Notes under the pieces: generated by a model | What the model saw: only the letters and a program-made list of their open reading frames with translations | Told to the model about the DNA's origin: nothing | Databases searched by the model: none | Assembly: GCA_000004695.1 (NCBI GenBank) | Contig: CM000153.2 | Coordinates: 416,001 to 480,000, forward strand | From: Dictyostelium discoideum | Lineage: Eukaryota | Reading direction: 5' to 3' | Length of the DNA: 64,000 bases | Program-made: the position numbers and the translations under genes | Part shown: positions 31,879 through 36,467 of the stretch, one piece after another | Layout: each line of letters begins with the position of its first letter | Position numbering within the stretch: the first letter of the stretch is position 1

Positions 31879-33138
31879 TTATTTTTTTTTAATAATTGTA
31901 AAAAAGTCACTTAAAAGATTACCAATTAAAATTTTACCATTATGTTCAATTGTGCTTGTAATTGTTGGAAAATCATTAGAGGTTTGGAAATAATTTAAGA
32001 TTTTACCAGTTTGAGTATCAGCAACTACTATTGAAGGTTTTTGAGGTCTCATTTTTAAATATGGTATTCTCAAGAAAATATTTTTGAGTATTGGATATGG
32101 ATGAATTAAATCTATAAACCAATTTCTACCACCAAATATACTAATATAAAGTTTTCCTTCTTTGAAATCAACATCAACACCATCTGGATAGCCTGGTAAA
32201 TTATCAATGAAAACTTCAGATTTACCTTTATTTGCACCTTTGATCCAGTATCTAAAAACTTTACATCCAGTGGTTTCACCAATGAAAATACTCTCTTCTT
32301 TTGGATCAAATGCAACACCATTTGAATATTTAAAACCATCCATTAAAACTTTAGTTTCCTTTGTATTTGGATTATAAGATAATAATTTACCATGACTAAC
32401 AGTGGTAACTAATGTATACATTGATGGTATTAAAGTATTCCAATCACCAGTATTATCTAAAATTGGCGCAATACTTGTACTATCTGTAAAATAAATCATA
32501 TCATCATTTCCAACAATTACATCCTTTTTTTTAAAAAAAAAAATAATAAATATTTAATTAATAATTTTTATTTATATATATAAATTTATTAAAAACACAC
32601 TTACATTTACAAAATTTAATTTTGAATGAGTTTTATTTGAATTTAAAAATGATGAAGTTAAAATTGAAAGTTGATTAGATTTAATATCAAATTTTAATAA
32701 ACCTTTGACGGAATCTGCTATAACTAAATTATCATCATTATCCATTGTTATACCTAAAGGACGACCACAAGTTAAAACGTATTCGGTTTTTGTTGGTAAT
32801 GCTTGATCTAATAATTTTCTTGGAACTGGTAAAAAGGGTGCTGATAATGAATGAATATTACCAGTTTTTAAAGCGAAATAAACCTTTTTACCATCTTTTG
32901 AAACTGCAATTGATTCTGGTCCTTCAACATCTAATTTAACATATTCGGCATCATTTAGATAAAATTCTGAAACTGTTTTATATTGGTCACTTGCATTAGT
33001 TAAATCAGGTTGGGGTGAATATGATTGTGGTTCTAAATCAATTTGATATCTTAAAAAAAAAATTGAATATGATGGTAATAATGCAATATATGTTAATAAT
33101 ATAAATATAATTATTACTAATATATTATTTTGTGTCAT
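31879..33138 (-). CDS. Strictosidine synthase-like / APMAP-family six-bladed beta-propeller protein with N-terminal signal anchor, 2 exons: 33138..32605 and 32523..31879; about 392 aa
   Basis: GPESIAVSKDG, LTCGRPLGI, DMIYFTDSTS, LLSYNPNTKETKVLMDGFKYSNGVAF, FIGETTGCKVFRYWIKG and LPGYPDGVD are typical of the family. Donor GTAAGT at 32604 and acceptor AAAAAG at 32524 keep phase 0. Confidence 0.8.
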
Positions 33139-33360
33139 TTTTTTTTTTATAATTTTTTATTTATTTATTTGAATATATAAAAAATTAATATTTGTTTAAA
33201 AAAAAAAGAAAAAATAAAAAATAAAAAAAAAATAAAAAAACTGTTGGATTAAAAAAAATTAAAAAAAAAAAATAATTTATATTTAATAATTCATAATTAA
33301 AAAAAAAAAAAAAAAAAAGGATAAAAGAACGAATTGGGTGTTTTTTTTTTTTTTCAAAAA

Positions 33361-33525
33361 ATTATAATTCTTCTTATTATCGTCATAATAATTCCAATTG
33401 GGGTTAATGAATAACAAAATAAAAAATTTCAGATTTCAATATTAAAAAATAATATTAATAAAAAAGAATATTTTTTTTTTAATTCCAATTGGAATTATTA
33501 TGACGATAATAAGAATAATTATAAT
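33361..33525. repeat. 41-bp near-perfect inverted repeat (arms 33361..33402 and 33481..33525, 1 mismatch) around a 78-bp A/T spacer; MITE-like or cruciform-forming element
   Basis: Left arm attataattcttcttattatcgtcataataattccaattgg. The reverse complement of the right arm is attataattattcttattatcgtcataataattccaattgg. The right arm begins with the perfect 16-bp palindrome aattccaattggaatt. Confidence 0.7.
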
Positions 33526-33906
33526 GAAAAGTTCTGTCATAAAGAGTTTTTTAATTTTTTAAAAAGTCTAATTTTTGAACTTCATTGAAAAATAAAAAAA
33601 AAAAAAAAATAAAAAAGTAATTTGTGGTTTAAAATTTATCATTATTTGATTAAATTATTTATTTTTTTTTACTATTTTTTTTTTAATTTAAATTTATAAA
33701 AGGGCAAATCTAGCATCATTTTTAACATCACAAATAATATCTTGATTTTTTTTTGAAATTTCTTTTTTTGAAAATAAAATTTTATTTTTTTATTTTTTTT
33801 TTTATTTTTTTATTTTTTAATTTCATTTTTTTTTTATTTTTTTGTTTTTTTTTTTATTATTAAAAAAATATTCACACATTATTTTTTAATTTATTTTATT
33901 TTTAAA

Positions 33907-33994
33907 ATGGATAAAGCAACATTAAGAAGAATAGATAATGTAAATATATAATAATGAATAAATAAAAATAAATAAAAAAATATTAATTTAATTT

Positions 33995-34037
<43 letters not shown>

Positions 34038-36098
34038 TATTATTATTATTTAAATAATAATAAAAAGACATTAAAACATTTAACAAAAGTATCAGATATT
34101 GAAAGTTTACATAAATCAACATTAAAAGATGAAATACCAAATGTAAAATTATTAAGATCAATATTAGATGGTGAATTTCATTTTGATCGTGATAGATTAA
34201 GAGAATTATTTCAAAGTTCAAATACATTTAATGAAAGATTTTTAATGGAACCATTATCAACTGATGAACATCGTGAACAAACGCTACAAGCATGTTTAGA
34301 GATTATTCAATTACAATTGGTCCAATTGAATGATATGGAAAAGAATCCAAAGAAATTTCTATCATGGTTTGAATCGATATCAATGTGTGATCCATCAGTA
34401 TCATTGAAATTTGCAGTTCAATATAATTTATGGGGTGGTACAATTCTATTCTTGGGTACAAAGAAACATCATGATAAATATCTTTCAGATATTGCCACTG
34501 GTAAATTACTTGGTGTTTTCGGTCTAACAGAATTAGGTCATGGTAGTAATGTAAATGGTTTAGAAACAACTGCAACCTATGATAGAAATACTCAAGAGTT
34601 TATTATAAATTCACCAACTTGGGAATCTCAAAAATATTGGCCTGGTAATATTAGTAAACATGGTAAAATGGCAACTATTTTTGCACGTTTATTAATAAAT
34701 GATAATGATATTGGTAGTGGTAGTGGTAGTGGTGATAGTGGTATTAAAAAAGATATGGGTATACATGCATTTGTTGTACAAATTAGAAGTGAATCAACAA
34801 GTAATAATAAATATGGTGAATTATTACCAGGTGTAACAGTTAGGGATATAAGTTTAAAGAATTGTTATAATGGTATTGATAATGGTGGTTTATCATTCAA
34901 TAATGTTAGAATTCCAAGAGAGAATATGTTGGATAGATTTAGTAGAGTTGACGCTAATGGTAAATATCATTGTGATCTTCCAAGTAATCGTCATTTCGCA
35001 ATGACTATGAGTGTATTTTTCATTGGTAGATTATGTTTATCATTAAATGCGCTATCATTTATGAAATCAGGTTTATCAATTGCCATTGGTTATTCAATCA
35101 ATCGTCACCAATTTAGTACAACTACCAAGTCAAGACAAGAGATACCAATATTAGTCTATAGTACAACCCAATTACGTTTAATACCATACATTGCAAGAGC
35201 ATATGCATTGGATTTAGCTCATAAAATGATTGCTGATCTATTGGGTAATTCAACGATTTCTAAAGAAGTGATTCATAGTTATAGTAGTGGTTTTAAGGCG
35301 ATTACAAGTTGGACATCGGTAGAATCATTACAATTGGCACGTGAGGTTTTAGGTGGTCAAGGTCTTAGATTATGTAATCGTATACCAATGTTATTGAATC
35401 ATGCTGATTTGATTACCACTGGTGAGGGTGATAATACAGTACTTTGTCAGCAGGTTACCAAATTCCTATTGGCCAAATATCATGCAACCATTAAATCAGC
35501 AGAACCTTCCAATTTCAAAGGTGAACTATCCTATATCAATCATCTCACTTCTCAACCACCAACCACCTCTTTATTGGGTGGAAATGGAGGTACTGATAAT
35601 TCATCGGTAGAGTTGAATTCAATAGCTTTCCATCAATGGTTATTGGAGAAGAGAGAATACATTTTAATTAAAACTTTACATTCTCGTCTCTATGGTAGAA
35701 TGGATGATGAACTAATTGAACCAAATACAGAACGTTGGTTCTCCAATTGGAATCAATCATTACCACTTTGTAAAATGATCACCAAAGCAAATGTTGATCG
35801 TTTAACTCAATCTTTCTTTTTACATAAAATCAATCAGCTAGCTTCCACTTTTGGTTCAACCGATACAAATACAATCACAATGTTAAAGAATCTTTGTCGT
35901 TTAGATACTTTATTTCAAATTCAAAAGGATTTAGGTTTCTTTATTAATAATGGTCTTTTAATTGGTGAAAGTAAATGGATTCAACTTCAAGATGAAATCA
36001 CTCATTTATCACGTGATATCTCACCACATTCCCATTTATTAACTGAAGCATTTGCTATACCAAATAAATTTAATCCACTTCAAAATTCAATTGAATAA
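33907..36098 (+). CDS. Acyl-CoA oxidase (peroxisomal ACOX family), 2 exons: 33907..33939 and 34068..36098; about 688 aa
   Basis: LGVFGLTELGHGSNVNGLETTATYDRNTQEFIINSPTWESQKYWPGN and GKMATIFARL are ACOX/acyl-CoA dehydrogenase N- and middle-domain signatures. The upstream in-frame segment LRSILDGEFHFDRDRLREL resembles the ACOX N-terminus. Exon 1 (MDKATLRRIDN|GTAAAT) is inferred. Confidence 0.82.
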
Positions 36099-36467
36099 AT
36101 TATAAAAAATAATTAAAAAATAAATTAAAAAATAATTATAATATAAATTGTCAAAAAATTGATAATTATTAATTTTCAATATTTTTTAATTTTTATTATT
36201 TTCTAATTTTTGACAATTTTTATTAATTTCCAGTTTTAGAAAATTTTTATTAAAAAATTGTCAAATATTTACAATTAAATAAAAATAAATAAATAAAAAA
36301 AAATTAATAATATTGGAAATTAATAAAAATTGCCAAGAATTTAAAATTAAATAAAAATAAATAAATAAAAAAAATTTTAAATTTTAAAAATTAATATTGG
36401 TAAAAAAAAAAAAAAAAAAAACAATAAAAAAATAAAATAATAAAAATAATAAAAATAATAAATATAA

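Follow-up and report, generated by a model that had tools for sequence, protein, structure and literature searches.

A near-perfect inverted repeat in the divergent promoter region of an SSL and an acyl-CoA oxidase gene of Dictyostelium discoideum, possibly a recent local inverted duplication

The intergenic DNA between a strictosidine-synthase-like (SSL) gene and an acyl-CoA oxidase (ACOX) gene of Dictyostelium discoideum carries a 165-nt unit, the two 41-nt arms of which are reverse complements with a single mismatch. All positions refer to the window, i.e., the whole, very A/T-rich stretch of 64,000 nucleotides (64 kb) that was analysed, in which the unit occupies 33361–33525. The inverted repeat is real and far from chance. 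Judged by comparison with related dictyostelids, it is specific to D. discoideum and lies within DNA that is subject to turnover through insertions and deletions. Since it is absent in these relatives and has no second copy in the sequence scanned, a recent local inverted duplication is its most likely origin, which we put forward tentatively, and a mobile element is unproven.

Structure of the inverted repeat

The arms lie at 33361–33401 and 33485–33525, separated by an 83-nt spacer, and their sole mismatch is a C at 33370 facing a T at 33516. The original prediction of a 41-bp near-perfect inverted repeat forming a 165-bp hairpin unit, with one mismatch between its arms, is confirmed; however, the spans that it assigned to the arms (33361–33402 and 33481–33525, 42 and 45 nt) were slightly loose because the paired arms are 41 nt each. 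In a repeat search of the window, pairing can be extended to 54 nt at 89% (arms 33361–33414 and 33472–33525). The parts of the unit, listed without strand, are as follows.

33361–33401: left arm, 41 nt, ATTATAATTCTTCTTATTATCGTCATAATAATTCCAATTGG (sequence reading and repeat search)
33485–33525: right arm, 41 nt (sequence reading; unchanged in a second D. discoideum assembly)
33402–33484: spacer or loop, 83 nt, ~88% A+T (sequence reading and folding)
33481–33496: perfect 16-bp palindrome AATTCCAATTGGAATT at the inner end of the right arm
33390–33405: degenerate copy of the palindrome, AATTCCAATTGGGGTT, with 2 mismatches, at the inner end of the left arm
33361–33368: outer 8 nt, ATTATAAT, itself palindromic; the same 8-mer stands at 33518–33525

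The palindrome at the inner end of the right arm is a perfect one of 16 bp, as had been noticed earlier, and its direct spacing from the degenerate copy is 91 bp. Arm identity stops at 33401/33402, within the palindrome, since the left arm has only the degenerate form there. At the outer ends, the palindromic nature of ATTATAAT would make an 8-bp target-site duplication indistinguishable from the end of the repeat itself. The spacer holds a small internal hairpin, AATATTA.....TAATATT. The unit is non-coding, its open reading frames (ORFs) being only 20–44 aa long and of low-complexity sequence; in one frame, the arms read N[SP]NWNYYDDNK[NK]NYN.

The repeat is the top non-low-complexity inverted repeat of the 64-kb window. 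A whole-window scan, in which the score is the length minus twice the number of mismatches, gave it a score of 41, compared with 26 for the runner-up and a maximum of 19 in 30 composition-preserving block shuffles. A 28-nt core of the arm occurs exactly twice in the window, once per strand, and in none of 100 shuffles. These two results uphold the earlier view that the arms are far beyond chance. Folding had been suggested as a check of hairpin stability, and the outcome is clear: the DNA of the repeat region folds at -44.5 kcal/mol (z -10.8), with 0 of 200 shuffles as good, and the RNA folds at -59.4 kcal/mol (z -12.7), matched by 0 of 200 shuffles, while the opposite strand reaches z -11.0. 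In physical terms, single-strandedness or transcription of either strand results in a very stable hairpin.

That the repeat is an assembly or sequencing artefact, for instance a chimeric fold-back read, has a practically negligible probability. A second D. discoideum assembly, GCA_054883475.1, agrees 100% with the window over the repeat region, and the presence of the same repeat there excludes an assembly artefact. This second assembly is a separate one, as indicated by a 12-nt difference in homopolymer length ~500 bp from the repeat. Furthermore, the arms differ by a mismatch, and the 83-nt spacer is unique. The homopolymer concerned is the T-run of ACOX intron 1 (33997–34037), where the window has 12 nt more than GCA_054883475.1, the sole difference between the two in 9.2 kb.

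Flanking genes and the divergent intergenic region

The location of the repeat between an SSL gene and an acyl-CoA oxidase gene, as originally proposed, is corroborated by protein and Pfam matches. A 617-aa ORF at 34245–36098 is 100% identical to the acyl-CoA oxidase of D. discoideum AX4 and has a Pfam ACOX match, and the minus-strand ORFs at 32572–33138 and 31879–32499 match a D. discoideum strictosidine-synthase family protein with the Pfam domains SSL_N and Str_synth. The true ACOX start is the ATG at 33907, not 34245; it is annotated likewise in another D. discoideum assembly (L006), and the start ATGGATAAAGCAAC is conserved across all orthologous loci. The first exons that face each other are as follows.

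32572–33138, minus strand: first exon of SSL, ATG at 33138 (ORF; Pfam SSL_N; 98% identity to the AX4 protein)
33907–33939, plus strand: first exon of ACOX, 11 codons (MDKATLRRIDN), followed by an intron (sequence reading)

With the ACOX ATG at 33907, the divergent intergenic region extends over 33139–33906, i.e., 768 bp, the same length as annotated in L006. The repeat lies 222 nt away from the ATG of SSL on one side and 381 nt away from that of ACOX on the other. SSL transcription probably starts after a T21 run on the minus strand (33297–33319), and relative to this putative start, the repeat lies ~65–230 nt upstream. Two copies of a 12–16-bp palindrome, 91 bp apart, have thereby been placed in this interval.

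Several other features of the window were observed. A promoter block, TTTGAAATTTCTTTTTTTGAAAATAAAATTTTA, at 33752–33790, ~120–150 nt upstream of the ACOX ATG, is largely kept in D. cf. discoideum, D. citrinum, and D. dimigraforme (ATGGAAATTTC/AGAAATTTC...GAAAATAAAATTT), and its 5' part is kept in D. firmibasis; it is a candidate for a real regulatory element. Just 3' of the ACOX stop, at 36159–36387, is a 94-nt inverted repeat at 72% with TTGACAATTTTT / AAAAATTGTCAA motifs. The orthologous 3' place in D. cf. discoideum (842–987 of its locus) is occupied by a zero-spacer palindrome with 73-nt arms at 81%, the 43-nt core of which has 2 mismatches and which adjoins a fully conserved block, GGAAATTAATAAAAATTGCCAAGAATTTA. 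The hairpin in the intergenic DNA 3' of ACOX is positionally conserved between D. discoideum and D. cf. discoideum. Elsewhere, the window contains 100 N at 7379–7478, an assembly gap, and a nearby 1319-aa ORF is not on record. No tRNA genes or Rfam families were found anywhere in the 64-kb window, so the repeat has no tRNA-targeted retroelement context.

Comparison with related species

Related loci, ~55 kb in total, were retrieved by means of the ACOX and SSL proteins, and are listed below with their relation to the window.

D. cf. discoideum, L004: syntenic with the window
D. citrinum strain 1, L001: syntenic with the window
D. citrinum strain 2, L005: syntenic with the window
D. dimigraforme, L002: syntenic with the window
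D. firmibasis, L003: ACOX locus only, with another gene upstream

In D. firmibasis, synteny is broken by a same-strand gene for an EF-hand mitochondrial carrier upstream of ACOX, and the SSL protein search returned no SSL ortholog from this species.

The arm is absent from the DNA upstream of ACOX in D. cf. discoideum, both D. citrinum strains, D. dimigraforme, and D. firmibasis. Local alignments of the left and right arms, on both strands, with the orthologous intergenic regions were no better than those of shuffled queries (p 0.1–0.7). The spacer likewise has no significant counterpart in orthologous intergenic DNA, where its matches fall elsewhere, in low-complexity DNA. Arms and spacer were also non-significant when tested on the colinear segment of D. 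cf. discoideum alone; with these tests included, the p values of the arms range over 0.1–0.8. In contrast to the repeat, the DNA on both sides of it is conserved, in the form of two anchors (without strand).

33341–33360: left conserved anchor, a T-run plus CAAAAA, ending exactly where the repeat begins
33560–33585: right conserved anchor, TAAAAAGTCTAATTTTTGAACTTCAT

The left anchor matches D. cf. discoideum at p=0.000 and the other relatives more weakly (p<=0.015), and the right anchor shares 25 of 26 positions with D. cf. discoideum and is likewise kept in D. dimigraforme (p=0, 200 shuffles). Between the anchors, D. discoideum has ~200 bp, whereas D. cf. discoideum has ~59–113 bp of unrelated sequence. 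The two stretches are unalignable under any gap parameters, and the alignment shifts as the parameters are changed.

Two more specific alignments were considered and rejected. In a MAFFT alignment, matches to D. dimigraforme (TGGGGT..., ATGTCGACAT) suggested that the left arm alone is new, the spacer and right arm having been inherited from an ancestor. However, TGGGGT aligns better with a conserved GGGTG/GGAAGG plus T-run anchor left of the repeat, and shuffle tests give no significant match for any arm or spacer. An alignment with D. cf. discoideum that resembled a clean insertion (CAAAAAAA^GTTGTG... vs GAAAAGTTCTG...) proved to be at chance level (p=0.34) and dependent on the gap parameters.

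The SSL-ACOX intergenic region has also changed in other lineages. The two D. citrinum strains are 91% identical in its aligned columns, i.e., they differ by 9%, and they are distinguished in the middle of the region by a clean indel of ~244 bp (L001 ~4368–4611 vs L005), the inserted sequence being unique and not of low complexity. D. cf. discoideum has an inverted repeat of its own (3766–3821 / 3871–3926 of its locus; 56–60 nt, 93%, almost pure A/T), which includes a lineage-specific duplicate of a ATGGAAGG+T16 block. The presence of this unrelated repeat implies that inverted duplication recurs in the region without a shared element. The arms of the D. discoideum repeat have diverged at 1 of 41 positions (2.4%), less than the 9% between the D. 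citrinum strains; therefore, the repeat is either young or kept homogeneous.

Origin of the repeat

A local palindromic duplication, which the original prediction had named as a fallback, is the reading favoured by the evidence, although we place it somewhat below an even chance. More precisely, the repeat may be a recent local inverted duplication of the template-switch type, specific to D. discoideum. One arm would have been copied as its reverse complement a short distance away, probably through a template switch during replication or repair, in which the nascent strand folds back or jumps briefly to the other strand. The setting would be the A/T-rich and rapidly changing part of the divergent promoter region that SSL and ACOX share, and a plausible switch point is marked by the inner junction of the copy, which falls inside the CCAATTGG palindrome. 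We infer this mechanism, along with the identity of the source arm, the switch point in CCAATTGG, and a lack of function; the repeat is probably neutral.

The observations that support a local duplication are the reality of the repeat, its lineage specificity, the conserved flanks, the low divergence of the arms, the indel-prone region, and the independent repeat of the sister lineage. Neither a further copy in the sequence scanned nor a clear target-site duplication turned up, which also favours it, as do the documented cases of one-step hairpin formation by template switching (PMC10710096). An inverted repeat present in one lineage and absent from the outgroups is what a template switch is expected to leave. 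A source arm should in addition pre-exist in an outgroup, and neither arm matches any outgroup significantly, a test that has low power either way since the nearest outgroup is distant (its SSL protein is 83% identical). As no outgroup carries either arm, at least one earlier arm-creating event must be assumed. Two further points count against a local duplication: a single insertion of the whole 165-bp unit needs fewer steps, and no gap separates the left anchor from the outer end of the left arm, which an insertion would predict.

Such an insertion, of the whole 165-bp unit as a MITE-like or foldback non-autonomous DNA transposon in the D. discoideum lineage, is the rival that we take most seriously, yet it is unlikely. 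It would account for the long terminal inverted repeats that bound a short unit without coding capacity, and for the fact that the whole unit is missing in relatives, its flanks being conserved on both sides and the left anchor stopping where the repeat begins. The outer ATTATAAT could be an 8-bp target-site duplication, and ATTGTAAT is present nearby in D. cf. discoideum. That foreign sequence does land in this intergenic region is demonstrated by the clean insertion of 244 bp that is specific to one D. citrinum strain. The original suggestion of a MITE is nevertheless weakened: its terminal inverted repeats are present, whereas neither a second copy, in the 64 kb of the window (from a 34-Mb genome) and the ~55 kb of related loci, nor a clear target-site duplication was found. 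The flanks, CAAAAAA before the unit and GAAAAG after it, have A-runs alone in common and hence offer no convincing target-site duplication. The site in D. cf. discoideum does not appear to be a clean empty site, as ~59 bp of unrelated sequence is located there in an alignment that depends on the gap parameters.

Searches beyond these loci are in line with a unit without known copies. A 21-nt core of the arm has no exact match in metagenome or viral collections. The matches to the arms in a sensitive blastn search (up to 81% over 42 nt) were rejected as (AAT)n asparagine-repeat coding DNA. A derivation of the arms from coding sequence was considered and rejected, since among 5.8 billion proteins, none shares three 5-residue words with the arm-encoded peptide; that no called protein carries these words speaks against a mobile element. 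For a 32-aa ORF that crosses the right arm, no record was found. In the Logan assemblies, D. discoideum contigs are ~1.1 kb long and break at intergenic DNA. The literature search found no paper describing MITEs in Dictyostelium; the DNA transposons of D. discoideum comprise three families, Tdd, DDT, and Thug, which together make up 1.5% of the genome (PMC5633606).

Possible roles in regulation and as a source of RNA

Two further readings would give the repeat a function. As a cis-regulatory element of the bidirectional SSL/ACOX promoter, it would act through sites for a dimeric factor, or through a cruciform driven by supercoiling, the two palindromic sites, TTCCAATTGGAA, consisting of overlapping CCAAT boxes that can be read both ways. 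Its position just upstream of the likely SSL start, the duplication of a perfect 16-bp palindrome at a distance of 91 bp, the very stable DNA hairpin, and one similar palindrome near the start of the window are compatible with this role, which is nonetheless very unlikely. Against the dimeric-factor site or regulatory cruciform originally suggested stands the absence of the element from the orthologous promoters of four related genomes, whereas the GAAATTTC...GAAAATAAAATTTTA block and TTGAACTTCAT of the same intergenic region are conserved there. Nor is the motif overrepresented. Outside the repeat, TTCCANTTGGAA has a single occurrence in the 64 kb, at 32–43, compared with 0.27 expected, and it has none in the related-species loci. 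CCAATTGG occurs 4 times compared with 1.36 expected, 2 of the 4 being within the repeat itself; once the repeat is set aside, the counts do not exceed expectation. Neither orthologous conservation nor motif enrichment, either of which would characterize a promoter element, was thus observed. An 83-nt spacer also disfavours cruciform extrusion. In the Dictyostelium literature, no paper on CCAATTGG as a regulatory motif was found, and one occurrence of the sequence was a gpdA PCR primer. The related imperfect palindrome noted earlier near the start of the window exists as AATTCCACTTGGAATT, although at 30–45 rather than 33–48. It is one mismatch from the 16-bp palindrome and lies in A/T-rich intergenic DNA ~1.2 kb upstream of an ORF starting at 1224; as a single occurrence compared with ~0.3 expected, it is probably a coincidence.

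Alternatively, the 165-nt unit may be a newborn hairpin-RNA or miRNA precursor that is transcribed and diced to ~21-nt RNAs, a reading that we regard as highly improbable. Its RNA would form a hairpin with a 41-bp near-perfect stem, with a folding energy of -0.47 kcal/mol/nt at 22 C and -0.35 at 37 C. The unit thereby passes the limit of < -0.2 kcal/mol/nt that has been applied to the miRNAs of D. discoideum (PMC6161686). The miRNA loci of this species are mostly intergenic, with T-runs ahead of them (PMC6161686), and T-runs are found upstream of the hairpin on both strands. The capacity of template switching to generate new miRNA hairpins also agrees with such an origin. On the other hand, the best Rfam match, MIR8643, scores 30 bits against a gathering score of 135, and nothing in the window reaches the gathering level. 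The arm strings do not occur among the miRNA sequences that PMC6161686 and PMC4894637 list in their supplements, a comparison that does not extend to the 17 miRNAs of Avesson 2012, and none of the full texts searched contains them. Since the unit lies between two divergent start sites, its transcription is not expected. Finally, its stem is longer and more perfect, and its loop much longer, than those of the listed precursors, which measure 105–153 nt and fold at -0.58 to -0.73 kcal/mol/nt.

Significance

If a local inverted duplication is indeed the origin, the repeat would illustrate, within clear boundaries, the de novo formation of long near-perfect hairpins in a genome extremely rich in A/T. 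Its newness is evident from the conserved anchors on both sides, and between the same two genes the sister lineage has built an inverted repeat of another sequence. Events of this type supply raw material from which new miRNA or hairpin-RNA genes may emerge and promoters may diverge. It is improbable that D. discoideum has gained a functional novelty here, either the first member of an undescribed low-copy dictyostelid family of MITE or foldback elements or a newborn hairpin-RNA gene. In the latter case, a gene would have been born by a one-step template switch in a bidirectional promoter, yielding small RNAs or altering SSL/ACOX expression relative to the sister species. On present evidence, the repeat is the product of an ordinary kind of event that changes no current picture, and it probably has no function.

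Comparison with known systems

Template-switch mutations that create hairpins de novo were reportedly described by Loytynoja and Goldman in 2017. Template switching is documented to make 30–55-nt hairpin stems in one step and is a documented source of new miRNA hairpins (PMC10710096). The D. discoideum repeat resembles these hairpins (Monttinen et al. 2023, PMC10710096) in being a lineage-specific near-perfect repeat in non-coding DNA, with a stem in the 30–55-nt range, a few post-event mismatches, and no clear target-site duplication, but differs from them in its long 83-nt spacer. In addition, the four-point template-switch solution is not reconstructable, unlike in the documented cases, because the source sequence was not found in the outgroups. 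The repeat of D. cf. discoideum is alike in its situation in the SSL-ACOX intergenic region, its lineage-specific origin, and its comparable arm length; however, it is unrelated in sequence, nearly pure A/T, and nearer the SSL gene, and one of its arms has a recognisable ancestral counterpart in D. discoideum.

With MITEs, the unit shares a size of ~165 bp, long terminal inverted repeats, A/T richness, a non-coding nature, a location in a promoter, and presence or absence between species, whereas no second copy (in the sequence scanned), unambiguous target-site duplication, clean empty site, or known autonomous partner was found for it. Analogous to the miRNA precursors of D. discoideum (mir-1176, mir-1177, and those derived from thug-S), it lies between genes, folds into a hairpin of favourable energy, and has T-runs upstream. 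Contrary to these precursors, it has no sequence match to the listed miRNAs and combines a longer, more perfect stem with a larger loop, and, unlike the thug-S miRNA loci, it is single-copy in the sequence scanned.
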